Below the pieces are notes generated by a model. It saw only the letters and a list, made by a program, of their open reading frames with translations, searched no databases and was not told the DNA's origin. Of a DNA stretch of 58,410 nucleotides, positions 1,560 through 48,028 are shown in pieces. Position numbers and translations under genes: made by a program. The stretch comes from a virus, in the IMG/VR virus record IMGVR_UViG_3300045988_065473, positions 1 to 58,410 of that record. The stretch is one strand, 5' to 3'. Within the stretch, counting starts at the first letter, position 1; each line of letters starts with the position of its first letter.

Positions 1560-1731
1560 CACGTTCACCGTCTTTCTCTCTGGCTTCCCGATTATGCCGT
1601 TCAAAGCACTGGTTCAGCATCTTTTCCATCCACAGCACCTTGTTGGCTTCGTTCCGGGACACGCCCTCCGCCATCGCAAGCTTCAACCTGCGCTTCCGGC
1701 TCGGTGCTTTGTAAAAATACGTCACCAACAT
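1552..1731 (-). CDS. Hypothetical 59-aa protein (below the ORF-track cutoff)
   Basis: Hand-translated as MLVTYFYKAPSRKRRLKLAMAEGVSRNEANKVLWMEKML... It fills the gap between flanking genes and overlaps both. Confidence 0.45.
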   Translation of the reverse strand: MLVTYFYKAPSRKRRLKLAMAEGVSRNEANKVLWMEKMLNQCFERHNREAREKDGERDE

Positions 1732-2096
1732 TCACCAGCCTTTTTGATGATGAATTTCGGGACTTGCTGACCTGTGGCAATGCACAGCGCAACTAGTTTT
1801 TCGACCCAGATATCACGCAAACCCTCTTCGGTCATATAGCACTGACCAACGCAGAGCTCCTTAAAATCTGCCCAAATCGATAGTCCAACAGCACCATCCG
1901 CGACCGTCCATATCATATTGTAGCCTTCATCGCACAGGCCGCACAAAATGTCTCGTGCTATGCTTTTGGCTTTGTCGATTTCAAAGGCATCCCAGCGCTT
2001 TTTGCTTTCCTCGTAAGCCTTTGTTGCCTCGTCAATGGCGTGGTGCGCTTCGTTCGGGTGTTCAAGGTCTACCTTTAAGGTGATAATCTGCTCCAT
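1722..2096 (-). CDS. Hypothetical protein
   Basis: 124-aa ORF in operon context. Confidence 0.6.
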   Translation of the reverse strand: MEQIITLKVDLEHPNEAHHAIDEATKAYEESKKRWDAFEIDKAKSIARDILCGLCDEGYNMIWTVADGAVGLSIWADFKELCVGQCYMTEEGLRDIWVEKLVALCIATGQQVPKFIIKKAGECW

Positions 2097-2098
2097 GT

Positions 2099-2860
2099 TC
2101 AGTCCTCCGCTTTTCTGCTCTTCTCCGTCTTTAAGAAGAGATTAACGAAATAGACCTGACCGATACCCGTCACCTTCGGGGTCTTATTGATAGAAGTGTG
2201 CCCGTCGGAATGTGCAATGGACGTTTCCTTGATTTCAAACAAGCGAAGTTCCATAGACTTCTGGGTCGGCATATTGTAGTCCGTCCGCTTTCTGTCCTTA
2301 ATCAGGTATCCGTTTTCACGCATCCATGAGAACAAGCGGTTCTGCCCCATCTGGATGCCGTTCTGTGACAGCAGCTTTGCCATTTCACCAACAAGAATGC
2401 TCTGGCTGCTTGCGCTTACTGCGTCAGCAAAAAGTGCTTTCGGCTTCATGGTCTCAATCTGCTTGTCTTTCTCTTCCAGCTCCTCATGCGCTGCGATCAG
2501 TGCAGTTGCGAGAAGTTGCGAGCGGGTAAGCTGCGGTGCGTTGTAGCTTCCAGTCTTGCGAATGGTAGGAAGCACATCGTTTGTGACCCATCTACGGAAC
2601 GGAGCCGCTTCCGGTTTGTCGCTGCGAAGAATGACATGGTACAGGCCGCTTTCGTTGACGATTACCATTTCCTGTTTGCCGCCAAGGGTGTCAATCAGAC
2701 TGACACCCTTTTCGTCATCATCTAATCGGTCAGCAGCCATGCGGTTATTGCTAATACCAAGCACAGCACACACATCTTTCAGAACGAACCACGCTTCCCC
2801 GTCCATATCAACCGTGCGAACTTTGCTGTTCTGATATTCAAAAACTTGAATGTTTGCCAT
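2099..2860 (-). CDS. Phage antirepressor (BRO N-terminal plus KilA-C/Ant C-terminal domains)
   Basis: N-terminus ...VRTVDMDGEAWFVLKDVCAVLG... is BRO-N-like. The C-terminal half resembles KilAC. Confidence 0.85.
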   Translation of the reverse strand: MANIQVFEYQNSKVRTVDMDGEAWFVLKDVCAVLGISNNRMAADRLDDDEKGVSLIDTLGGKQEMVIVNESGLYHVILRSDKPEAAPFRRWVTNDVLPTIRKTGSYNAPQLTRSQLLATALIAAHEELEEKDKQIETMKPKALFADAVSASSQSILVGEMAKLLSQNGIQMGQNRLFSWMRENGYLIKDRKRTDYNMPTQKSMELRLFEIKETSIAHSDGHTSINKTPKVTGIGQVYFVNLFLKTEKSRKAED

Positions 2861-2875
2861 TTTTTCTCTCCCTTC

Positions 2876-3097
2876 TTACACTCCCGAATCCTGAATATTC
2901 AAAATCCGGCAGATGCTTTTCTTGATGCCGGGCGTTTCCAGCTTCCCTGTCTTAACCTTGAAAAGGTAAGAACGGTCAAAATATCGTCCGGTGTCCTCCT
3001 TGACTTTTTCAATCAACCAGTCATTGGTCTTGTCTTTTTGGATAAGAGCAATCTCGATTTGTTTGCCAAAGTCACACAGAGGTTTTTTTTCAGCCAT
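2876..3097 (-). CDS. Cro-like small DNA-binding protein (first gene of the early leftward operon)
   Basis: 73 aa, divergent from the CI-like gene across an operator-rich gap. Confidence 0.55.
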   Translation of the reverse strand: MAEKKPLCDFGKQIEIALIQKDKTNDWLIEKVKEDTGRYFDRSYLFKVKTGKLETPGIKKSICRILNIQDSGV

Positions 3098-3273
3098 TAT
3101 TTCACCTCCGGCTATTGATTTTTACGCATAAGTGTAATATAATGAAGTTGCTAGAAATCATTCATTACGCCTTCGCGGTACGGTCTTAGTATAATACGCT
3201 TTCGCGTAAAATGCAAGGCTTTTTTAAGCGTTCGCGTAATTTCAGCAAACCTTACAATGCGAGGACTGGAATT
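3098..3273. promoter_or_regulatory. Divergent immunity-switch region with three related operator half-palindromes
   Basis: TTACGCcttcGCGGTA (3165-3180), TACGCtttcGCGTA (3195-3208), TAAGCGttcGCGTAA (3225-3239), about 30 bp apart. TATAAT boxes at 3138 and 3190. Confidence 0.6.
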
Positions 3274-3603
3274 ATGGCAAACTTGTACGAAAATATTGAA
3301 AAACTCTGCAAGCAGCGTGGAGTAAATGTGACCACAATGTGCAAGGAATCGGGTGCAAGCCGTGGGTCTTTGACCGATTTGAAAAACGGTAGAAAGCAAA
3401 CCTTGAAATATGAAACGCTCGATAAGATAGCTTCTTATTTTGGAACAAGCGTAGATGCTTTGGTTTCTGGCGAACATAAAGAAAACCCGCCCCAGCAGCC
3501 GCAAAGCGAAGTTGACGCGGATATCAAATGGATTGAGCAGAAGCTAGTAGAGATGCCGAAAGAAAAGCGTGAAGCTTTGATGAAGCTTATCAGAACTATG
3601 TGA
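3274..3603 (+). CDS. CI-like XRE-family repressor
   Basis: HTH CKESGASRGSLTDLKNG. GAGGA RBS before the ATG at 3274. Confidence 0.8.
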   Translation: MANLYENIEKLCKQRGVNVTTMCKESGASRGSLTDLKNGRKQTLKYETLDKIASYFGTSVDALVSGEHKENPPQQPQSEVDADIKWIEQKLVEMPKEKREALMKLIRTM

Positions 3604-3612
3604 GGTGATGAC

Positions 3613-4092
3613 GTGGGCAAAAAGAATTTTAGCAAAGAAGAGCTGCTGAACGACAAAAGTTCTCACATGGGTGATAGGTTTTCATTTGCCTTCGGTGCGC
3701 TTTTCTTGGTTGCTTCATTTATTTTCCTTGTGTATTCTTCAACCGCCTTTTTAATCGTTGCAGCCATTGGGGCTATGATGTTGATAAAAGGTAAACGCGG
3801 ATACGATATGTTTCTTGAAAGAGAAAAGCTCAAAACAAAAATGTACGAAACACCTGTATCCGCAAAGATTGTAGGCTCTGGTGAAAGCAAGAAGGCCGGA
3901 AGCGCCGCACTCCGTTCCGCTGTTGGCGGTTCAATTGCCGGTTTGCCCGGTGCTGTTTACGGTGCAGCATCCGCAAAATCTAAAACCAGCGTCACGTTTT
4001 ATGTGACGTATGAAGATGGGCATCACGGAAGCGAAACTGTAAATTCCGATTCTAGCCGGTTCTTAAAACTGATGAAAGTCTGTAAGGATTGA
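3613..4092 (+). CDS. Membrane protein co-transcribed with the repressor (possible superinfection-exclusion or Abi function)
   Basis: GTG start and two TM segments. The position downstream of cI is typical for exclusion genes. Confidence 0.5.
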   Translation: MGKKNFSKEELLNDKSSHMGDRFSFAFGALFLVASFIFLVYSSTAFLIVAAIGAMMLIKGKRGYDMFLEREKLKTKMYETPVSAKIVGSGESKKAGSAALRSAVGGSIAGLPGAVYGAASAKSKTSVTFYVTYEDGHHGSETVNSDSSRFLKLMKVCKD

Positions 4093-4104
4093 CCCGGTAC
4101 AAAT

Positions 4105-4152
4105 AAAACCCCTTGCGCCGGGCTTTTGGTAGCCTTATGCGCAAGGGGTTTT
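4105..4152. terminator. Bidirectional hairpin terminator
   Basis: AAAACCCCTTGCGC...GCGCAAGGGGTTTT, a 14-bp stem flanked by A and T runs. Confidence 0.7.
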
Positions 4153-4153
4153 G

Positions 4154-4255
4154 TCATGCGTTAGTTATTATTTCTTTAGCTGCCGGAATCTTCTCAGGAT
4201 GTTCCAGCAGCCATGCAATAAATCGGTCAATCTTGGCTCTTTCCTGTTCACTCAT
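4154..4255 (-). CDS. Hypothetical 33-aa peptide
   Basis: Hand-translated as MSEQERAKIDRFIAWLLEHPEKIPAAKEIITNA. GGGAGGA RBS 9 nt upstream. Confidence 0.4.
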   Translation of the reverse strand: MSEQERAKIDRFIAWLLEHPEKIPAAKEIITNA

Positions 4256-4446
4256 TGTGGCATATCCTCCCGATCGGTAAGTGCAGATGTTCATTTGATA
4301 CGATTATACATCTTCTAGTTGTCAAGTCAATGTCTTTTGAACAACTTTGTAAAAATCGAACGTTTTCTTCACATCCATTACTTCACATCAGGGAAGCCAC
4401 GAGTGTTCAAGTCAAAAGGGACAGCGCCTATCCATCTTTCCTCCAA

Positions 4447-32655: not shown

Positions 32656-34164
32656 CTATTCGCCCTCTGTTTCTTTATTGATGCTGTCAGACTGTTCGTC
32701 CGATGTTTTGTTGGCTTCAACAACTTGTTCAGGCTGTTGTTCCTGCGGTTTCGGAGCTTTGCCGTCCTCGCCCAGCTTGCCAGCGGCAATCAGGAACGGC
32801 TTGCTCATTTCGTAAGCAGCCTGCGGGTCAGGGAACAGACCGGGCGTAGTGAATGCCAGCTGCGGGTCGATGGTCTGCTGCAACATTTGTACGAAAATCT
32901 GAACCTTGCTCTGCTGGTTGTCGTACTGGCGGCGGGGCAGTTTGATGTTGATGTCACTTGCCATCAGATTAGAACCAGCCGTATCACGCAGGATTTTCAG
33001 CATCACAGACAGGCTTTGGCGTTCCGAGAACTTGAACATATTCTCGTACTGCTGTGCCCTTGCTTCGGTGTGATTCCAGCCATTGCGGACGATGACCGCA
33101 CCCACGTTGTCGGATGTTGCGTTCTCACTACCAGTGGCACTAGGCATGGCAGTCAGACTACGGTACACGTTCAACATGGAATCAAGCAGGGTCTGGCTCT
33201 GCTGCTGGTCAAGTTCGTTTGCAATCTGAGAAACAGAAGCGGGCAGACCAGAAGTGGATTTCAAGCACATTGCGCCAAGCTCTTTTACTTGGTCAAGAGC
33301 ATCCTTGTCCACAAGACAGTTGGTAAACACCATGATGGACTGGATGAACTGCGCCACACCGTCCAAACGGTTGCTTTCAAGGTCGTTGATGGCATCCAGC
33401 ACAGGAATAGCCGGTTCAAACAGACCCATTCGCTCCGGGTTCAGCTTGTATTCAACCATCGGCAGCATTCCGAGAGAATGGTTCTCCGATTTCGTAACCT
33501 TGCCGTTGTCGATTTCAAAGTACTGGTTCGGCGTATATACGCAAATCAGGTCGTTCAGGTCATTCTGATAATTGCGTGGGATGTGCAGCACGTTGGCGAT
33601 GGGCTTGTGCCCGATGCCGGAGTTGTAAATCACATACGCCATGTCCGGGTCTGGAACATCCACCAGCAGGGGTGTTTCGTCCGGGTAGTTTCCGTTGTAC
33701 CCCTTGTCAGGAAGAACGATGCGGTATCCCTGTCCGCACTCCAACATCCACTGCCAGAGCCGCCGATCAAGCGCATCCTTGCCCTCATACTGCAAAGCAT
33801 TGGACAAACGGGCGATTTCCTCACCGTCACCAGTTGCCGTTTCAGACCGCACATAAGAGCAAGGAGTGCCGCTCATGTAACCTGTGTAGAAGCCCACGCA
33901 CTCATTGGCGTGGTTCTCTACAATGCGATTGGTGATTTCAGCGTGGTACTCCTTCGTGCGCTGGAGGACAGGCTGGCTACCCAAGTAGTAGTTGTGCAAA
34001 AAGCGAATCTCATTCTTGTTCAGCAGATGAATAGGCTCTGCCTTGCCAGTGACCACTTTCAGCACGTTCGTCTGATTGATTTCCGTCTCCGGCGTTTCAA
34101 TCGGTCTGCGTCCAGTCAGAGGCTCATTCAAAAAGCCGTCAACAACTATCTGATACTTAGCCAT
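32656..34164 (-). CDS. Portal protein
   Basis: 502 aa. Position and size fit an SPP1 gp6-like portal. Confidence 0.8.
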   Translation of the reverse strand: MAKYQIVVDGFLNEPLTGRRPIETPETEINQTNVLKVVTGKAEPIHLLNKNEIRFLHNYYLGSQPVLQRTKEYHAEITNRIVENHANECVGFYTGYMSGTPCSYVRSETATGDGEEIARLSNALQYEGKDALDRRLWQWMLECGQGYRIVLPDKGYNGNYPDETPLLVDVPDPDMAYVIYNSGIGHKPIANVLHIPRNYQNDLNDLICVYTPNQYFEIDNGKVTKSENHSLGMLPMVEYKLNPERMGLFEPAIPVLDAINDLESNRLDGVAQFIQSIMVFTNCLVDKDALDQVKELGAMCLKSTSGLPASVSQIANELDQQQSQTLLDSMLNVYRSLTAMPSATGSENATSDNVGAVIVRNGWNHTEARAQQYENMFKFSERQSLSVMLKILRDTAGSNLMASDINIKLPRRQYDNQQSKVQIFVQMLQQTIDPQLAFTTPGLFPDPQAAYEMSKPFLIAAGKLGEDGKAPKPQEQQPEQVVEANKTSDEQSDSINKETEGE

Positions 34165-34255
34165 GTTGTCCTCCTTTCCGGCAAAATAAAAAGCGCAGCA
34201 AGACAGACCTGTTAAGGTCTATCTCACTGCGCCAAAACTGCGCTTCAAAAGCTAT

Positions 34256-34438
34256 TTACTTTTCCGGTGGATGGATGATTTTCACCCATCCTTCCCTTGT
34301 GTCTCCTTCGATAACGCCCTTGCATCTGTCGCACTTGAAATGGTATCGTCCGTCCACTTCGCCAAGATATCGGTTGCAGCGGACATTCTTATAGATAGGG
34401 TTCTGCCGGATACAAGGGCAACAGATTCTAACTAGCAT
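34256..34438 (-). CDS. Small zinc-ribbon protein
   Basis: CCPC...C...CDRC motifs. AAAGGAG RBS. Confidence 0.6.
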   Translation of the reverse strand: MLVRICCPCIRQNPIYKNVRCNRYLGEVDGRYHFKCDRCKGVIEGDTREGWVKIIHPPEK

Positions 34439-34787
34439 GAGCGCTCCTTTCGCTGGATTTCTGGAAACAGGCTGTTAAGCACAGACCTGTCGGAAGCTAC
34501 CGGGAAACTGTTCGCGCTTCCGGTTACGCTAGTTAGTTGTCGGGACTAACAACGTAGTTTTCCCGCCTAAAAGAAAACCACAAATGGTCACAGATTTCGG
34601 ATTTGCACCAATGCCTACGTCTTTCGACGTGCAGCTGCCTGACCGCTGCAATCTGTGATAAACCCGGATTAATTGAAGCCGTTGCTCTTTGCAATGTGAA
34701 AAATCTAAAGACATTGCATCGAGAGCCGGGAATAACGGAAGAGGTAGTTTCAGGAGAATATCCCATGCAAAGCAAGAGAATCGTTGT

Positions 34788-34871
34788 GCTGCGTGGTGGG
34801 TTTGAACCACCGATTGCTGGCATTGTTAAGCATTGGGGGCACCAGCATTCTCATCCGGTAGAGAACGCAAC
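34788..34871 (-). ncRNA. tRNA-like RNA: canonical acceptor, D and T arms but a 21-nt anticodon loop
   Basis: Hand fold: GTTGCGT/ACGCAGC 7-bp acceptor (one G-U), U8, D loop with GG, GCTGG/CCAGC stem, GGTGG-TTCAAAC-CCACC T arm, discriminator A, no encoded CCA. Confidence 0.6.
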
Positions 34872-34875
34872 TCAT

Positions 34876-34910
34876 AGAAACCTGTGACGAAGAGCGACCG
34901 TCGCCACAGG
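34876..34910 (-). terminator. Hairpin plus U-tract just upstream of the tRNA-like gene
   Basis: The minus strand reads CCTGTG-(GCGAcggTCGC...)-CACAGG TTTCT. Confidence 0.5.
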
Positions 34911-35009
34911 AAAGAAAGGAGTGGTATTCACACAATGAAGGGCCGATGAGCAAAATGACAAAATCTCATCAGAAGAATACCTGACGGAAGTAGCAAGCTT
35001 CCTGCTTAT

Positions 35010-35039
35010 ATTGTAAAGCAAAATATAATCGAAAATCAA
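35010..35039 (-). promoter_or_regulatory. Sigma-70-like promoter downstream of terL
   Basis: The minus strand reads TTGATT, 18 nt, TACAAT. Confidence 0.45.
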
Positions 35040-35077
35040 ATTTTTGCTTCCAAGCACCGCTATATATGACACTTTTC

Positions 35078-36745
35078 TCAAAAAGGCCTCTTGACAGGCT
35101 CGATTTTGATGATTCCGTTATACAGCTCATCGGCAAGCTGCGCCAAACTGTCCGGTGCATCATCGTGCGGAACCTTTCCAAGCTGCGTGAACATCGTGAC
35201 CTGTTCCATGAACGCCTTGTACTCTTTCGACTGGTGTTTTTCGTCAAGGAAATAGAACCGTTTGATGTCTGGCGCATACTGGATGATTCTTGACAGCTTG
35301 CTTTGACCGCTTGGCGCACGCTGGCTACGAACAGAGCAATGATAGCCTTGCTGCCGAAGCTGGCTGTCCACCACGTCACAGTATTCGTCACCGCCGTTGT
35401 TAGCTTCGCCGCGCACCACATTGATTTTGTGCTGGATGATTTTGCCCACGACTTCCGGTCTGGTCACGGTCTTATCGCCATTGTTGAACACAAGGTCAGG
35501 GATGAATACGGCATCTCCGTACACATAGGCGATAGGGCAGGCGGTGAAGTCACCACCACCCCATGCAATATCCATGACCATGAGCTTGCGATCAGGCTCG
35601 CCGTCAGGCAGAACGCCGTTGAAATACCGCAGTTCATCGGCAGGGAATAGCAGGCCTTCACGCACATAGGGCTTACCCATGTACTTTGCCCACCATGTTG
35701 CATCGTCAATGCTGGCTTTCATATCGGCATAGTAGGCATCGTCAAATCCAACGCCATAGTCATAATTGAAGTTGCTGTGTCCGTTTTCGTCCACCGCAGG
35801 AATCACCCGGAATCGGTACTTCGGGTTGTCTGCATACTGGTTCTGGATGCGTCCCAGAGGGTCAAGCACGTTCCATCGGGTGCCGACCATCAGCTCTAAT
35901 GCGCCTTGCTTTTTACGGTCTTTCAGCTGGTTCAAATAGGCATCGTACTTGTTGTTCAGGCGCTCAACATTCAGGCTTTCCTCCAAGTCCTCGATCAAGT
36001 CATCGCTGTACAGAACGCCGCCCTCGCCAATTTCAACAGCACCAGTCAACGTACCGCCGATGGAACGACAGGTCAGGGTGGGGAAACGCTTCTTTCGGTT
36101 CAGATCAACGCTTTCGTCCTTTGCGCTTTTGTCCACAAGCTGAACGTCAGGGAAGATTTTGCCCCAGTTGTAGGTCACGGGGTCGGTGATGATGGACAGC
36201 ACTTCGCCGTAGAAGCCGTTGGTCAGCTTGTCAGAATGTCCGCTCATAACCGATGCAACGTCAGGGCGGTTACCCATCAGCCATGTGATGAAAAATATAC
36301 AAAGAGTTGATTTTCCAGTTCTCGGAGCCATCGAGATTCCCAAGAAATCTACACGATGGAAAAACAAGTCCTCAAGGTCATTGACAAGCGTGTGCAAAAT
36401 GCGCCTGCGCGGCTGATAGAACTTCTTCTCCGGCGCACGATTCCATTCAAGGTAGATGCAATAGCTGTCGAACACATCCTTTGCTTCAAGCAGGTACGTC
36501 CGGCCGATAATGTCATAGACCTTCGCCACGTCCTCGCCTGTTTTCATCTTGCCCATCATGGATGCACAGACGGAACGCAGCTCACCAGAGTATTTGTAGG
36601 CATCGAACCGCTTGTCTTGCGGCAGAGCATCTCTCAGGTTCACCACCGCCTGAAACCAGTCCTCATAGACCTGCGCTTCGGTCGGATTCTGCTTTGCATA
36701 CGCTTTAATACTGTCGATGATGGCGATACACTGTTTTGGCTGCAT
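35078..36745 (-). CDS. terL: Terminase large subunit
   Basis: Walker A-like SMAPRTGKST, DDLIED acidic motif and a C-terminal nuclease-like half. Confidence 0.85.
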   Translation of the reverse strand: MQPKQCIAIIDSIKAYAKQNPTEAQVYEDWFQAVVNLRDALPQDKRFDAYKYSGELRSVCASMMGKMKTGEDVAKVYDIIGRTYLLEAKDVFDSYCIYLEWNRAPEKKFYQPRRRILHTLVNDLEDLFFHRVDFLGISMAPRTGKSTLCIFFITWLMGNRPDVASVMSGHSDKLTNGFYGEVLSIITDPVTYNWGKIFPDVQLVDKSAKDESVDLNRKKRFPTLTCRSIGGTLTGAVEIGEGGVLYSDDLIEDLEESLNVERLNNKYDAYLNQLKDRKKQGALELMVGTRWNVLDPLGRIQNQYADNPKYRFRVIPAVDENGHSNFNYDYGVGFDDAYYADMKASIDDATWWAKYMGKPYVREGLLFPADELRYFNGVLPDGEPDRKLMVMDIAWGGGDFTACPIAYVYGDAVFIPDLVFNNGDKTVTRPEVVGKIIQHKINVVRGEANNGGDEYCDVVDSQLRQQGYHCSVRSQRAPSGQSKLSRIIQYAPDIKRFYFLDEKHQSKEYKAFMEQVTMFTQLGKVPHDDAPDSLAQLADELYNGIIKIEPVKRPF

Positions 36746-39011: not shown

Positions 39012-39575
39012 TTATCCAGCCTTTCTCTGTTCAGCAATCCGATACCATGTCTGGCGGGTCACGCCAAGCTGCTTGGCAGCGTCCGTGACCGTGAGAATGC
39101 GCTTCTCCACTTGCTCATGGAGAACGTCAAAGAGGTTGCGGTCATACTCGGTGGGCTTGCGACCTTTATAAACGCCTTTCTGCTTTGCCACTTCGATGCC
39201 CTCTTGCTGGCGATCAAGCATATTCTGTCTTTCAAATTCGTTGATGGCTGCAATCATCGTAAGCATCAGTTTGCCAGTTGGAGTGCCTGTATCTAGGTTC
39301 TCTTTATCACTGGCAAGGTGCACGCCGTTAGCTTGCAGCGTTTCAACCATTTCAAGCAAGTCCTTTGTGCTGCGGGCAAGGCGGCTGAAATCGTGGATAA
39401 ACACGGTATCGCCCGGTTGAACAGATTTAAGCATCTTCTGCAACTCCGGTCTATCCATATTCTTGCCAGAGACCTTCTCGATGAACCAACGGTCAATGTT
39501 ATGCCGCTTCAACGCTTCTACCTGTCGTGCTTCATTCTGTTCAACAGTAGATACACGAACATACGCTACGTTCAT
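39012..39575 (-). CDS. Small serine recombinase (resolvase/invertase family)
   Basis: N-terminal YVRVSTVEQ catalytic-Ser motif, ...SRLARS..., and a C-terminal HTH. 187 aa. Confidence 0.9.
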   Translation of the reverse strand: MNVAYVRVSTVEQNEARQVEALKRHNIDRWFIEKVSGKNMDRPELQKMLKSVQPGDTVFIHDFSRLARSTKDLLEMVETLQANGVHLASDKENLDTGTPTGKLMLTMIAAINEFERQNMLDRQQEGIEVAKQKGVYKGRKPTEYDRNLFDVLHEQVEKRILTVTDAAKQLGVTRQTWYRIAEQRKAG

Positions 39576-40904: not shown

Positions 40905-41031
40905 GACGCTCGCTAAAGTTTGGCGACCGCAGCGAACGTCTTATGAAACACTCAGAGAGTACAGACCCTCTTTGGGTTATTATACCAGAGATGGCCTACT
41001 CTCGCAAGATAGAAAGGTCAAATTTCTATGA
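40891..41031 (+). CDS. Hypothetical 46-aa basic protein
   Basis: Overlaps the upstream stop and the downstream start (ATGA). Confidence 0.35.
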   Translation: MKKNKTLAKVWRPQRTSYETLREYRPSLGYYTRDGLLSQDRKVKFL

Positions 41032-41855
41032 ATAATAATCTTGAAACCATCCGAATCTTCTCCGAAGATGTTATCCCCGTGTACGACACCGACACTGGCG
41101 AAAAGGTTGTTCTGGGTCGGGAACTGCACGAGCGGCTCAAAATCAAGACCGCATACAAAGACTGGTTTCCTCGTATGTGCGAGTATGGTTTTGTTGACGG
41201 AAAAGACTATGGCTCATTTTTGAGCAATAGGTCTGATGGGCTTGCTGGAAAGCCCAGAACCGACCATATTATCACTCTGGACATGGCAAAGCACATTGCG
41301 ATGATTCAGCGGACACCTGAGGGCATGGAGATTCGCCAGAAGCTGATCGACCTTGAGAAGAACGTATCGCATTATCCGGTCGGACAGCCCAGCAGCTTGC
41401 AGATTTTGAACATGATGGTTCAGGCTGTGAACGAACAGGCTGCACGAAGCGCAGAAACCGAGAAGCGCGTGGATGCCATTGAATCCGGTTTCAACAATAT
41501 GTGCTCGATTATGACCGTCAGCGTCAAGGATGATGCACGGAAGGTCTGTCAGCGCACGTTGAATGCCATTGCAACCAAGCGTGGCGGTGGTACAGCCTAC
41601 GCAGACGTATGGAACGAAGTCTACGATGAAATGAAGGAGAACGGCTTCGATGTGCGCCGCCGTTTGGATAACCGCAAGAAGGATGCCGCGTCTAAGGGCA
41701 TGAGCAAGACTTTTGTGCGGAAAATCAACGCTGTTGACATCATCTTCGACAGCAAAGACAAGAAGATGGAATCTGCGTTCATCAACTCCGTACGCCGTTT
41801 GGCAGCGGCCACAAACGTGAAGTTTGAGGTCAAGGAAGAAAAGCAGTCCGCATAA
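41028..41855 (+). CDS. AntA-type phage antirepressor
   Basis: LHERLKIKTAYKDWFPRMCEYGFVDGKDY matches the AntA/AntB N-terminal pattern. Confidence 0.75.
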   Translation: MNNNLETIRIFSEDVIPVYDTDTGEKVVLGRELHERLKIKTAYKDWFPRMCEYGFVDGKDYGSFLSNRSDGLAGKPRTDHIITLDMAKHIAMIQRTPEGMEIRQKLIDLEKNVSHYPVGQPSSLQILNMMVQAVNEQAARSAETEKRVDAIESGFNNMCSIMTVSVKDDARKVCQRTLNAIATKRGGGTAYADVWNEVYDEMKENGFDVRRRLDNRKKDAASKGMSKTFVRKINAVDIIFDSKDKKMESAFINSVRRLAAATNVKFEVKEEKQSA

Positions 41856-45056: not shown

Positions 45057-46093
45057 ATAGTCGTAGCGTTCCGGTTGGAATAGTCGTAGCCAATAGTCGT
45101 AGTTTCTCCGTTAAAATAGTCGTGGAATAGTCGTAAAGTCGTCAGACGACTATCTTTTGAAAGTCCTATATATCGTATATTAACGAATGGTTCGCCGATA
45201 GTCGCAGAGTGATAGTCGTAGCATTTTCTTGCGAACCATTGTCAAATAGTCGTGTATTTTTTGTGTAAAATAGTTGTTCGCCTTTTAGAGAAAGAGAGGA
45301 GCGATAGTCGCTAAGCCATCCAACCACTCCAAAAATCACCTCTCGTTTCAATTTCGTATAATTTATTCTTCCGCTAGTTATACCTATTTCGTATAATAAC
45401 CGTACTTATTATAGTATACAGATATAGTTACTCACGATAATCACTGATTATTTCGTATAATAACTCGTACCATCCGATTCGGTCTGTTCCTGCTCGATTT
45501 AATTCCCAGTAATATACTATGGTATCACAATCAATCCATAGCATTCTACTAGGAATAATCAATGCAACATTTCTACATATTCAACCGACTACAAAATGAA
45601 GCCAATTCTCCATGTGAAATAGTCGTAGACTATCCAACAGTCCGAACCTCACGCCAACTCTCGCCTGCGGTCTGCTCTGCTGGCTAACGGTGTAGTTCTG
45701 GAGATAGAGGGTTGTAGGGGGAAAGAACCTTTGCAAAGCATTTGGTTGTCATTTTTAGTTGTTGCAGTTGTCGCACCATTTTGGCGTGGGGGCCTCAAAC
45801 AATTTATTTGTTTGAGGGGGGAGTTAGGGGGATTATAGGGGGTAATAGGGGTTGTAGGGGAAAGAGGGGGAAGAAAGGGGGGAAGATTTGTATTCCATGA
45901 TACCAACGCATACCATTCGTATCAACTGGTACGATTCGTATCGCTTGGTATGCAATAATCGCATCCATTTCGTCTCATGCACTCTGCTTTCGTCTAATTC
46001 TCCCGTCGATCGAGGCGGATTCTACTCAAAATCAGACCTTGCCGTTTTCTCTCGATAAATAACAGAAGAAAAAAGCATGGAATAGTCGCAGAG
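45057..46093. repeat. Second origin-like region: at least 13 copies of ATAGTCG(T/C), 3x ATTTCGTATAAT, and TTCGT(A/C)T repeats
   Basis: ATAGTCGT at 45057, 45080, 45093, 45116, 45127, 45212, 45246 and 45619. Variants at 45198, 45270, 45304 and 46082. Inverted copy at 45146. ATTTCGTATAAT at 45351, 45386 and 45450. Confidence 0.8.
45816..45882 (+). repeat. Seven G4-G6 tracts at 10-11-bp spacing ((T)AGGGGG repeats)
   Basis: G runs at 45816, 45827, 45838, 45848, 45857, 45866 and 45877. A 10-bp-stem hairpin at 45792-45816 precedes the array. Confidence 0.8.
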
Positions 46094-46162
46094 GGTAGTT
46101 TTACTACCTGACACCATTCCATGCTTTCTGATACGTTTGTTGATTGGAGATTTTAGCGGAGA

Positions 46163-46444
46163 TTAGATTCTACCATCTGCTTGCATCTTGCGCATACGCT
46201 CCGCAGCCGCTTCTTTCTGTTCGTCCGTCATAATTCTTGTGGTAGCAAACCGCACAAGTCGCTTGGGCATCTCATACCACTTGCCGTCCTTGTCCTGCTT
46301 GACCAGCTTGTACGATGCAGGCTCACGTTCGCACAGCTTGTCAAGCTTGCGCATATACACCGGGTCAGCGGTATAAACCGATGCAGTATCTTCCGCTGCA
46401 TTGAAGTTGACGATGGTCTCTTGTTCCAGTCGAGTGATGTTCAT
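46163..46444 (-). CDS. Hypothetical protein (93 aa)
   Basis: GGAGGAAAA RBS before the internal ATG at 46444. Confidence 0.6.
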   Translation of the reverse strand: MNITRLEQETIVNFNAAEDTASVYTADPVYMRKLDKLCEREPASYKLVKQDKDGKWYEMPKRLVRFATTRIMTDEQKEAAAERMRKMQADGRI

Positions 46445-46579
46445 AATCGTTTTCCTCCGTTTGTTGATTGACGAAAAATATTTATGTGATTCAGACGGTA
46501 ACTTTATCGCCCAGACCATGTTATCTGTTTTTCTTGCCCATTCTACTGTGACGATACGAGCGCAGAAGCAATTATAGGC

Positions 46580-46789
46580 TTATATCAGCCATCCAGCATA
46601 GTTAAAATAGCTACAATATTCTACCCTTTCGAGTTTTTGAGCTGTTACAGCATGCTTTTTATTCTCGTCTCGTCGATACAAATTGTGAAACAAGCAGTAG
46701 TCCCCTTGACGGTTCAGGCAAGCATCACACAGACCGTATCTTCCCTTTCCTGCGTGCACGTTGTCTATGAACTTCTCCAGTGTGTCCAT
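46580..46789 (-). CDS. Cys-containing hypothetical protein
   Basis: 69-aa ORF downstream of dnaB. Confidence 0.55.
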   Translation of the reverse strand: MDTLEKFIDNVHAGKGRYGLCDACLNRQGDYCLFHNLYRRDENKKHAVTAQKLERVEYCSYFNYAGWLI

Positions 46790-46804
46790 ATCGTTCTCCT
46801 CTCG

Positions 46805-48028
46805 TTACATCCACACGCATTCTTTGAATTGCTGCGTTTCCATCTGGAACGTGATGTCCAGTAACCCTACGTTGCCCTCTTTGTTCTTCTCAAGCGCAAA
46901 ATGATAATGCTGTTCTGGTCTCTTTTTCGTGGTCACGTTCTGCGCCAGCAGGATGATTGCGTCTGCGTCCTGCTCGATCTGCCCGGATTCTCGCAAGTCT
47001 GCGGCGGTTGGCGGAATACCTGCTCTTGCGGTCTCTCGATTGAGCTGTGCAAGTGCTACCACCAGCGTTCCCGTGGACTGTGCGAACTCATGCAGCGCCA
47101 TGCTGATCTCCGTGACGGCACTGTATCGGTCTTTCGCTCCGGCTTGATGGATAAGCTGCAAATAGTCGATGAACACTACTTTTGCTTGCATCCTGATGGA
47201 CTGCGTTCTAATCCACCCAACGCTTTTGCCAGCGGCAGAGCGGACGAACAGCGGATATTTCTTGATGGCTGCTAGCCTATCAAGTTCGTCAATGCTGACA
47301 GTCTTGTTTTTGACCGTGTGAAGCGGTACGCCTAGCTGGTTTGCGATGATACGAGCGTAGAGCGTGTCCGGGTCAGTCTCTAAGCTGAAATATGCCACCT
47401 TACGTCCGTTCTTGGCTATTTCACAGGCAAGTTGCAGAGACAGAGCAGTCTTGCCAGCAGACGGTCTGCCGCCGATCACAACGAAGTTGCCCGGCACAAG
47501 ATGCAAGTTGTTGTCCAACACTTTAAGCCCTGTGCTAATATATTCCGGCTTATCGTCTAGCTTGCGGATGTAGTTGTCTATACCATCGCACATCGGGATG
47601 AAATCGCTTCTTTCGTTGTGTAGGTTGATAGCTTCGCCTAGCTGCTCATAGATGTCTGTCAGGTCTGCGTATCTGGTTGAGCCATCAACGATTTTGAACG
47701 CAATCTCTCTGGCTCTTGACAATGCTGCCTGTTCCTTGACGATTCCAGCCCATCCAAGCATCATGTCATGGGTGACGTTGCGGATGAACTCTGCACCGAA
47801 GGCATCCAGGCACTCACCCATTGCTTTCTTGCAGTTATCGTACCGCCCCATGACTTCTACCGGGTTCCACTTGTCGTTGTGTTCCCAATAGCCACGAATG
47901 GCAGCGAATGTATCACGCAGTTCAGGGCAGAAATAGTCGATTTTAAGGTCTTGCAGCACATCGGCATACTCCGAAAACGTGAGGACTGCTCCCAGCAGGA
48001 TGTATTGGGTCTGATTTTCAATATTCAC
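46805..48028 (-). CDS. dnaB: DnaB-family replicative DNA helicase
   Basis: Walker A GGRPSAGKTALSL, ...IDYLQLI... and an N-terminal DnaB-like domain. Confidence 0.9.
   Translation of the reverse strand: MNIENQTQYILLGAVLTFSEYADVLQDLKIDYFCPELRDTFAAIRGYWEHNDKWNPVEVMGRYDNCKKAMGECLDAFGAEFIRNVTHDMMLGWAGIVKEQAALSRAREIAFKIVDGSTRYADLTDIYEQLGEAINLHNERSDFIPMCDGIDNYIRKLDDKPEYISTGLKVLDNNLHLVPGNFVVIGGRPSAGKTALSLQLACEIAKNGRKVAYFSLETDPDTLYARIIANQLGVPLHTVKNKTVSIDELDRLAAIKKYPLFVRSAAGKSVGWIRTQSIRMQAKVVFIDYLQLIHQAGAKDRYSAVTEISMALHEFAQSTGTLVVALAQLNRETARAGIPPTAADLRESGQIEQDADAIILLAQNVTTKKRPEQHYHFALEKNKEGNVGLLDITFQMETQQFKECVWM

Follow-up and report, generated by a model that had tools for sequence, protein, structure and literature searches.

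The question raised by IMG/VR record IMGVR_UViG_3300045988_065473 is what lies between its terL and portal genes. In this viral sequence of 58,410 nt (all of it analysed here and termed the window), terL runs to 35078 and portal begins at 34164, leaving a gap of 913 bp in which the sole conserved open reading frame (ORF) encodes 60 amino acids (34438-34256). A sequence-only reading had estimated the gap at about 900 bp with just this ORF, which the measurement bears out, and had suggested one or more structured noncoding RNAs (ncRNAs) for the remainder. The comparative analysis leaves us highly confident that the gap is a real structured ncRNA locus. By its sequence record, it is a conserved noncoding unit of about 565 nt, preceded by a predicted promoter and ended by a predicted terminator, with modules that would fold independently of one another. 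The unit is described on the minus strand, which carries all genes in the packaging/head part of the window and to which the coordinates below refer unless marked otherwise.

A Conserved Noncoding Unit

The evidence is comparative and was gathered from relatives of the phage. A terL search returned at least 592 IMG/VR contigs, 80 of which were fetched (terL amino-acid identity 97-99%, mostly 55-60 kb in length). A DNA pattern derived from the first of two tRNA-like elements in the unit found more than 120 further viral contigs, and one derived from its pseudoknot found more than 119 metagenome contigs, almost all from the human gut, both among the matches listed; two GenBank fragments from human faeces also match. 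The resulting comparative set holds about 250 distinct relatives among the matches listed (153 IMG/VR variants and 98 metagenome variants).

The RNA at 35005-34439 (567 nt) folds better than its shuffled controls, with a minimum free energy (MFE) of -183.7 kcal/mol against -160.0 +/- 6.6 (z = -3.58), and its sub-domains give z values of -3.3, -3.1, -3.1, -1.8, and -2.0. All hairpins named in the sequence-only reading were recovered at their positions. The helices are supported by compensatory changes in four independent alignments (A1, A2, A5, and A6), and since they are kept in this way despite fast sequence turnover, they are not chance stems. The conserved G-U pairs, namely U2-G71 in tRNA-like element 1, a D-stem pair of that element that is U-G in 7 of 17 sequences, and a pair of the P4 hairpin that is G-U in 59 of 97, would be mismatches on the opposite strand; thus, the selected structure is that of the minus-strand transcript and not of a DNA element.

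The region had been described as ORF-free, which holds for conserved ORFs but not for chance ones, as frames of up to 96 amino acids occur (34823-34533). None of these is kept in frame or in length across 79 related loci, no homologous phage has a gene at this position, and all three stop codons are present in all six frames of the region. Because every type of stop occurs in every frame, the region is not a recoded gene, and the same stops together with the lack of a conserved ORF in the 79 loci rule out a decayed one, an explanation that the sequence-only reading had itself raised. Neither of the outcomes checked here that would have told against that reading, an intact gene in homologous phages or folding no better than in shuffled controls, was observed.

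An unbiased helix scan of 210 full-length variants showed that local helices form the longest and most covarying runs and revealed no long-range helix of comparable length or support, the scan being based on a sequence alignment and blind to tertiary contacts. Long-range helices joining the modules were sought and none was convincing. Since such helices are lacking and the modules reassort among relatives, the sequence data suggest modules strung together like beads and not a single globular fold.

The 5′ Domain

The first bead is a domain of 131 nt (34874-35004) composed of three hairpins. A covariance model (R1), built from eight sequences of one 5′-domain type, has exactly one match in each of 100 sources, and its match in the window spans 34874-35004 (38.4 bits, E = 1e-7). 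The sequence-only reading had envisaged a small RNA of about 130 nt plus a tRNA-like RNA; the model match is exactly 131 nt with covarying helices, and the tRNA-like element 1 that follows is a covarying cloverleaf, so both parts of that suggestion stand. P1 is the GGAAG/CTTCC hairpin (35002-34998/34990-34986). P2/P3 is a long irregular hairpin, in which GGTATTC/GAATACC (34981-34975/34929-34923) encloses GATGAG/CTCATC (34970-34965/34950-34945) and the apical loop UUUUGUCAUUUU is conserved. P4 (34910-34901/34890-34881) is a strong, covarying hairpin; its loop measures 10-16 nt, and its tail is UUUCUAUG, for which most relatives have CUUUAUAU.

In alignment A5, 96.2% of the cells of this domain are paired, compared with 41-49% with slid partners, a large margin even though the alignment was fitted to the model, which favours pairing. 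Both sides change in 25 of the 35 pairs; P4 is 99.9% paired, with 7 of its 10 pairs covarying. The domain has an MFE z of -3.31, and five 5′-domain sequence types share the one folded architecture. P4 had been read as terminator-like. The hairpin is present (34910-34881) and lies 9 nt upstream of element 1, but its U-tract is weak and interrupted, and a terminator scan did not call the hairpin, making it a weak terminator at best.

Between P2 and P4 lies the single-stranded CUCCUUUC (34914-34921), which is kept in all five 5′-domain types with 4 single-base variants among 153 sequences and has only two minus-strand copies in the whole 58-kb window. It is complementary to the Shine-Dalgarno (SD) sequence of the small ORF, GAAAGGAG (34451-34444), and the MFE structure of the whole RNA pairs the two. 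We also take it to match the anti-SD 3′ tail of Firmicutes-type 16S rRNA.

The tRNA-Shaped Elements

Element 1 (34786-34871) has a clean cloverleaf as its MFE structure (z = -3.12). The acceptor stem GUUGCGU/ACGCAGC is followed by a discriminator A and then CAAC, with no CCA; the D stem has 4 bp, and the T arm reads GGUGG-UUCAAAC-CCACC. It thereby has the canonical 7-bp acceptor stem, D arm, 5-bp T stem, and 7-nt T loop, but lacks the canonical anticodon arm of a 5-bp stem and 7-nt loop, as its ‘anticodon’ arm has a 6-bp stem and an enlarged 19-nt loop containing CCCCC. Across relatives the length of this loop ranges from 10 to 22 nt, and a run of C is nearly always present in it. In alignment A1 (17 diverse variants), 92% of the cells are paired, compared with 36-45% when slid, with both sides changing in 12 of the 23 pairs. 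Covariation is seen in the D, ‘anticodon’, and T arms, whereas no variation occurs in the acceptor stem, the discriminator A, or the trailer CAAC. The element is present in all relatives among the matches listed and was never called a tRNA by default ARAGORN or by Rfam, in the window or in the relatives. An intron-bearing tRNA was considered and rejected: the ARAGORN intron search was empty at the default threshold, and the loops of 10-22 nt hold no splice motif.

Element 2 (34585-34657) occupies a position, here termed slot 2, that usually holds a tRNA gene, and it aligns column for column with the bona fide tRNAs of that slot (alignment A6). Its acceptor stem CACAGAU/AUCUGUG is followed by ACCA, its D arm is GCAGC/GCUGC, and its T arm AUUGG-UGCAAAU-CCGAA has an A-A mismatch in the stem and the 7-nt loop UGCAAAU; in place of the anticodon arm stands the hairpin ACGUC-GAAA-GACGU with a GAAA tetraloop. 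The sequence-only reading had listed TGCAGC/GCTGCA, ACGTC-GAAA-GACGT (34630-34617), and flanking stems as separate hairpins; all are present, but they jointly form this second tRNA-shaped element. In alignment A6, the acceptor and D stems are 99% and 100% paired, respectively, and the cloverleaf is 92.7% paired, compared with 28-43% when slid, with 17 of the 21 pairs changing on both sides. Like element 1, it has the canonical cloverleaf shape without the 5-bp/7-nt anticodon arm. In this window, judged by sequence, neither tRNA-shaped element would be able to decode.

Slot 2 is a normal tRNA-Met(CAT) in 132 of the 153 IMG/VR variants and 82 of the 98 metagenome variants, and overall about 85% of relatives have a normal tRNA-Met/Ile(CAU/UAU) there, scoring 53-58 bits against the Rfam tRNA model. 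Three slot-2 tRNAs carry TAT (UAU), and these copies suggest that at least one slot-2 backbone is tRNA-Ile2. In one relative (IMG/VR contig 3300045988_077737), an extra tRNA-Trp(CCA) directly follows the slot-2 tRNA-Met; hence, the slot can gain tRNAs. In the other 15% or so of relatives the slot-2 copy is non-decoding, and at least four distinct forms of it occur, in which the normal anticodon loop has given way to a GAAA tetraloop, a UUA/UUG triloop, an extended arm, or a 6-nt loop. The body of the UUA/UUG-triloop form still scores 51 bits against the Rfam tRNA model, and in the GAAA stem of a relative of the window type (L257), a U-A pair has been replaced by C-G, a compensatory change. On these comparisons, the anticodon-less forms look like maintenance of shape rather than decay. 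As the acceptor stem of element 1 is identical at 12 of 14 positions to that of the commonest slot-2 tRNA, element 1 is probably an old paralogue of the slot-2 tRNA.

Default ARAGORN finds 0 tRNAs in the window, and the Rfam tRNA model (RF00005) has no match there even at E <= 10. A relaxed ARAGORN run finds both elements plus 21 others in the window, mostly inside ORFs; with 23 matches it is unspecific and was discarded as evidence, so tRNA-likeness rests on alignment and covariation. Two variable hairpins follow element 2, E1 (34582-34553; a run of 9 column pairs, 4 of which covary) and E2 (34553-34536), both of which fold in the MFE structure; in other types, equivalent hairpins of different sequence occupy this segment (34536-34582).

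The Linker and Pseudoknot Domain

Element 1 is joined to the next bead by a pyrimidine-rich linker of variable sequence (34739-34785), which ends in ACCUC(U/C) and in which no conserved helix was found. The domain that follows (34663-34738) is an H-type pseudoknot. Helix A pairs CCGUU (34738-34734) with AACGG (34683-34679) and is paired in 97.9% of cells, 3 of its 6 pairs showing covariation; helix B pairs CCCGGC (34730-34725) with UCCGGG (34668-34663), is likewise 97.9% paired, and shows one C-G to U-A change, seen in two sequences. The two helices interleave, and between them stands hairpin H, with 12 bp (34723-34712/34696-34685) and a conserved tandem GA/AA internal loop. One variant has Watson-Crick pairs in place of that loop, which fixes the register of the hairpin. 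In alignment A2, 90.6% of the cells of the pseudoknot are paired, compared with 26-43% when slid. The hairpin nested inside CCCGG/CCGGG in the sequence-only reading is therefore present (34723-34685 inside CCCGGC/TCCGGG), but it belongs to the pseudoknot.

Promoter, Leader, Small ORF and Terminator

A sigma-70-type promoter is predicted at 35010-35039, with a -35 hexamer TTGATT (35039-35034), an 18-nt spacer, and a -10 hexamer TACAAT (35015-35010). The match by itself, on which the earlier proposal of a promoter had relied, is at chance level (2 promoter-type matches found in the scan compared with 1.6 expected). The prediction is credible because of its fixed position: the last base of the -10 hexamer lies exactly 5 nt ahead of the first hairpin motif in 153 of 153 distinct relatives. 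Among these, the -10 hexamer is TATAAT in 129, TACAAT in 14, and TAAAAT in 10, the -35 hexamer is TTGATT in 144 and TTGACT in 9, and the spacer is 18 or 17 nt; both hexamers are kept even in variants with a different surrounding sequence. From this arrangement we infer that transcription would start at about 35004-35002.

At its other end, the unit runs into the leader of the small ORF (34439-34530), which is its most conserved stretch, with column identities of 91-99% across all types. The leader contains overlapping helices, ACCGG/CCGGU (34524-34520/34503-34499) and CGGAAGC/GCUUCCG (34522-34516/34497-34491), the latter being the 7-bp stem CGGAAGC/GCTTCCG of the sequence-only reading, and a further hairpin at 34491-34485/34472-34466; the SD sequence GAAAGGAG ends a few positions before the ORF, at 34451-34444. 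Among relatives, CUGG/CCAG changes to CCGG/CCGG, and the CGGAAGC/GCUUCCG helix is partly supported, as GGUAG variants break its pairing.

The 60-amino-acid ORF (34256-34438) encodes a zinc-ribbon-like protein that occurs as two alleles of 60 and 62 amino acids, about 31% identical, with a common zinc-ribbon pattern (shared C7, C21, RYLGEV-G, C36-x2-C39, GD, and W). Phages that otherwise hardly differ have exchanged one allele for the other. Even at E <= 10 the protein matches no Pfam or PHROG family, and homologues were found only within this phage lineage. Its AlphaFold model is all-beta (predicted local distance difference test score, pLDDT, of 72) and has no structural neighbour in the PDB. 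A likeness to Mu Com was seen by eye and found no support. The ORF is followed by a strong intrinsic terminator (34192-34233), a 19-bp stem and then UUUUUAUUUUG, with 91-99% identity in relatives. The terminator directly abuts the portal ribosome-binding site (RBS); thus, portal and the downstream head genes seem to need read-through or antitermination.

Distribution and Sequence Turnover

The flanks of the unit are conserved, with about 93% of positions kept relative to the relatives in the last 900 nt of terL (35078-35977) and the first 900 nt of portal (33265-34164), whereas the 566-nt RNA region (34439-35004) has a median of only 32% alignable identical positions. The RNA unit is a sharp diversity hotspot between these flanks. 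It is a mosaic whose blocks recur in different combinations among relatives, and its length is held at 560-601 nt in the 210 distinct full-length variants.

The closest cultured relative is Clostridium phage Maintenon, whose host is [Clostridium] innocuum and whose terL is 52% identical. In Maintenon and in another relative (terL 51% identical), terL, small ORF, and portal are contiguous without the RNA island; by this comparison, the island is specific to the present gut-phage lineage. Maintenon has a noncoding or tiny-ORF stretch with tRNAs Trp, Gln, and Met (ARAGORN) at 1630-4280 of its own sequence, between terS and terL and not after terL, and tRNA islands therefore vary in site among related phages. 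Copies of the unit in hosts or prophages were also sought, and representative bacterial genomes held none, the seven pattern matches being chance matches without homology. With at least 592 IMG/VR contigs and more than 119 metagenome contigs, the lineage is among the commonly assembled human-gut phages, and the unit takes about 1% of the phage genome.

Genomic Context

Upstream of the gap lie an RtcB RNA ligase gene (38031-36817; Pfam 1.9e-63, PHROG ‘tRNA splicing ligase’ 4e-134) and terL (36799-35078), the latter of ordinary type with an RNase-H-like nuclease domain. Downstream lie the SPP1-type portal gene (34164-32656) and the scaffold, major head, and tail genes, including that of a 1356-amino-acid tape measure protein; the gene set is a siphovirus-type structural module. 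A serine-recombinase/DNA-invertase gene (39012-39575, minus strand) and an anti-repressor (Ant) gene (41028-41855, plus strand) are located upstream of the packaging module. They hint at a temperate or phase-variable lifestyle, and the representative genomes searched contained no prophage copy. Elsewhere, an ORF-poor gap of about 900 bp (45906-46805) adjoins a DnaB-like helicase gene and may represent an origin region or another noncoding island; it contains a 91-nt ‘tRNA-Lys ctt’ (46354-46444, plus strand), the only relaxed-ARAGORN match surviving at 90% of the threshold.

Proposed Mechanism and Alternatives

What the unit does can be addressed with graded proposals. The one we put forward, for which the scales stand about level in our judgement, is a processed ncRNA operon punctuated by tRNA shapes. 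One primary transcript of about 810 nt would run from about 35003 to the terminator at 34192, and the tRNA-shaped elements would be its built-in processing signals, with RNase P cutting at their 5′ sides and RNase Z cutting after the discriminator of the CCA-less element 1, while element 2 carries an encoded CCA. Cutting by RNase P is proposed because both elements keep what this enzyme requires, namely an acceptor stem of 7 bp that stacks on the 5-bp stem of a T arm whose loop has 7 nt. The products released would be a 5′ RNA of about 130 nt that exposes the anti-SD-like CUCCUUUC, a tRNA mimic of 85 nt whose loop is rich in C, a roughly 125-nt RNA containing the pseudoknot, the slot-2 tRNA (in the window a second mimic), and the small-ORF mRNA. 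Such an arrangement would parallel the T4 tRNA cluster with its stable RNAs. Our leading guess for function is translational control via the exposed CU-rich and C-rich motifs, combined with a role of the tRNA shape that is independent of decoding; speculatively, the motifs act on SD sequences in cis or in trans.

Several observations weigh against this proposal. P4 and the UUUCUAU that follows might end some transcripts. The two sides of the CUCCUUUC-SD pairing are both invariant and give no covariation signal. RNase P is unspecific for sequence, and processing alone cannot explain the invariant acceptor stem and trailer of element 1. On its plainest reading, slot 2, a normal tRNA in most relatives, is a phage tRNA gene, and its anticodon-less forms could be recent losses. 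A bolder reading, in which the anticodon-less, tRNA-shaped RNAs and the 5′ RNA with its likeness to the 16S 3′ tail are trans-acting effectors, is unlikely in our view. They would be CCA-tailed tRNA mimics and an anti-SD mimic that jam or divert host enzymes directed at tRNAs, immune nucleases that target tRNAs, or translation initiation; if this were true, phages would have a previously undescribed kind of RNA weapon that evolves in an arms race, and the combination of extreme turnover with a fixed structure would be explained.

A cis-acting leader would control translation of the zinc-ribbon ORF, with the SD sequestered by CUCCUUUC, and/or read-through of the terminator before portal; processive antitermination of this kind is exemplified by the HK022 put RNA. 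The position of the unit between a promoter and an ORF with its terminator, the portal RBS right after that terminator, the 91-99% conservation and overlapping alternative helices at 34530-34439, and the MFE pairing of CUCCUUUC with the SD all fit such a role. Yet a leader has no obvious need of two tRNA-shaped elements or a functional tRNA gene, the modules upstream of 34530 reassort freely, and the distant relatives checked have terL, small ORF, and portal without the RNA, so that portal expression there is independent of it; nor did any likeness to a known antitermination RNA come to light, no test aimed at one having been made. We regard this explanation as unlikely. Rather improbable, to our mind, is a counter-defence RNA, in which the mimics, and spare tRNAs in relatives, would decoy or replace the targets of host tRNA-cleaving nucleases and the turnover would reflect an arms race. 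It would make sense of a tRNA shape without an anticodon kept in at least four independent forms, of extreme turnover beside flanks conserved at about 93%, and of the accessory RtcB RNA-repair ligase adjoining terL in the window. RtcB is also commoner with an anticodon-less slot 2 (5 of 10 compared with 12 of 63, p = 0.046), a weak association without phylogenetic correction. The known anticodon nucleases, in contrast, recognise the anticodon loop that the mimics lack, RtcB is absent from 56 of 73 relatives, and the 5′ domain and the pseudoknot are left unexplained. RtcB as an obligate partner was rejected, as 17 of the 73 informative relatives have it.

It is quite unlikely that the unit is a single large ‘ornate’ RNA of the GOLLD/ROOL kind, folded into a possibly multimeric particle with embedded tRNAs. 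The length of about 565 nt, the phage origin, the tRNA(-like) elements with a pseudoknot, and the lack of a known protein partner are all shared with that picture, against which stand the lack of an Rfam match at E <= 10, the finding of one pseudoknot only with no multistem junctions besides the cloverleaves and no long-range helices in the sequence-based scan of 210 variants, and a module reassortment that is hard to reconcile with one co-adapted fold. A decaying tRNA cluster, in which the elements are pseudogenes and the rest is spacer without its own function, could draw on the normal tRNA in slot 2 of about 85% of relatives and on the weakened T arm of element 2 in the window (A-A mismatch, UGCAAAU), an element that fails the Rfam tRNA model. 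We nonetheless judge it very unlikely: strong covariation is also seen in helices that lie outside the tRNAs, every relative retains element 1 and its covarying arms, the anticodon arm has become a stable GAAA hairpin with a compensatory change instead of eroding, and unit length is held at 560-601 nt in 210 variants.

The sequence-only reading had also entertained a ribozyme remnant or a packaging-associated RNA, and neither option found support. A hammerhead or hepatitis delta virus (HDV)-like/theta ribozyme, or a phi29-type packaging RNA (pRNA), is barely credible here, even though CUGAUGAG occurs at 34972-34965, the pseudoknot has the HDV P1-P2-P3 strand order, theta ribozymes flank phage tRNA-Met genes (PMC10879173), and the unit lies between terL and portal. 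After CUGAUGAG there is a plain hairpin, with no GAAA, no stem III, and no Rfam hammerhead match. A loose HDV descriptor gave no consistent match, and neither tRNA-like element has one at its 3′ end; the junction before helix B lacks an invariant C, and Rfam shows no HDV match. A pRNA is opposed by the absence of an Rfam Phage_pRNA match and by the standard nuclease-bearing terL and SPP1-type portal of the phage.

Non-decoding tRNA mimics arose repeatedly and were maintained, which implies that the tRNA shape is useful to the phage apart from translation, and the natural variation of the three motifs absent from Rfam is sufficient for structure determination and mutant design. Should its parts work in trans, with translation or host defences as their target, they would offer a tractable case of RNA-based host manipulation by gut phages.

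Comparison with Known Systems

A search of Rfam, which the sequence-only reading had named as a check, matched no family in the region, GOLLD, ROOL, ribozymes, and pRNA included: the window as a whole had no match at gathering thresholds, the region had no meaningful one at E <= 10, and in six diverse relatives at E <= 10 only ordinary tRNAs matched. A literature search for phage tRNA mimics or decoys returned nothing specific. Bacterial Y RNA (YrlA), which is linked to Rsr/RtcB and whose tRNA-like module has a terminal Ro-binding stem at the ‘anticodon’ position, was considered and set aside, since it has no Rfam match here and the topology is that of a normal tRNA, both ends lying in the acceptor stem; in connection with that comparison, RtcB is accessory, being present in 17 of 73 informative relatives and missing from 56, and the Rsr gene was not searched for.

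A close parallel is the tRNA region of phage T4, where a tRNA cluster is co-transcribed with two stable RNAs (species 1 and 2) and RNase P processes the transcript. Both systems combine tRNA or tRNA-like units with structured RNAs of other kinds in one noncoding phage block, and in both the tRNA shape offers RNase P sites. Unlike the T4 region, the present block has no decoding unit in the window and one tRNA-shaped unit that is non-canonical in every relative, it lies inside the packaging/head module, it ends in the leader of a small ORF, and its processing is a prediction. The cloverleaf-like fold with a non-functional anticodon arm and a use other than decoding recalls the MALAT1 mascRNA and the tRNA-like structures of the turnip yellow mosaic virus/tobacco mosaic virus (TYMV/TMV) type, and in the latter a pseudoknot domain likewise adjoins the tRNA-like element. 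Those RNAs are eukaryotic nuclear transcripts or RNA-virus genomes with no sequence relationship to the unit, whereas here the transcript comes from a DNA phage and one element derives from a phage tRNA-Met/Ile gene.

GOLLD and ROOL, both of them phage RNAs, occur in the vicinity of tRNAs, and GOLLD at times carries tRNAs in a linker (PMC12286853, PMC5737381). Like the present unit, these families (RF01998 and RF03087) are several hundred nucleotides long, phage-encoded, and tRNA-associated and contain a pseudoknot. However, their covariance models match neither the window nor the six diverse relatives, even at E <= 10, and the unit appears modular, with reassorting parts and one pseudoknot found, whereas theirs is a fold of many multistem junctions. 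Theta (HDV-like) ribozymes share with it the setting of a gut-phage structured RNA flanking a tRNA-Met gene and a P1-P2-P3-like strand order of the pseudoknot, but the pseudoknot here is upstream of the tRNA and not at its 3′ end, the ‘P3’ is a 12-bp hairpin, and P1.1, P4, and a conserved catalytic C are missing.

Phage noncoding blocks that mix tRNAs with stable RNAs, and large phage RNAs near tRNAs, are thus already known, and parts of the locus may already be listed, without interpretation, in a large catalogue of candidate structured RNAs from IMG/VR (PMC10690425). What is new, compared with these systems, is a set of three motifs without an Rfam family (the 5′ domain, element 1, and the pseudoknot domain), a non-decoding tRNA mimic that is conserved in all relatives and whose acceptor stem never varies, the repeated conversion of a phage tRNA into anticodon-less mimics, and the fact that a highly prevalent lineage of gut phages carries all of these within its packaging/head module.

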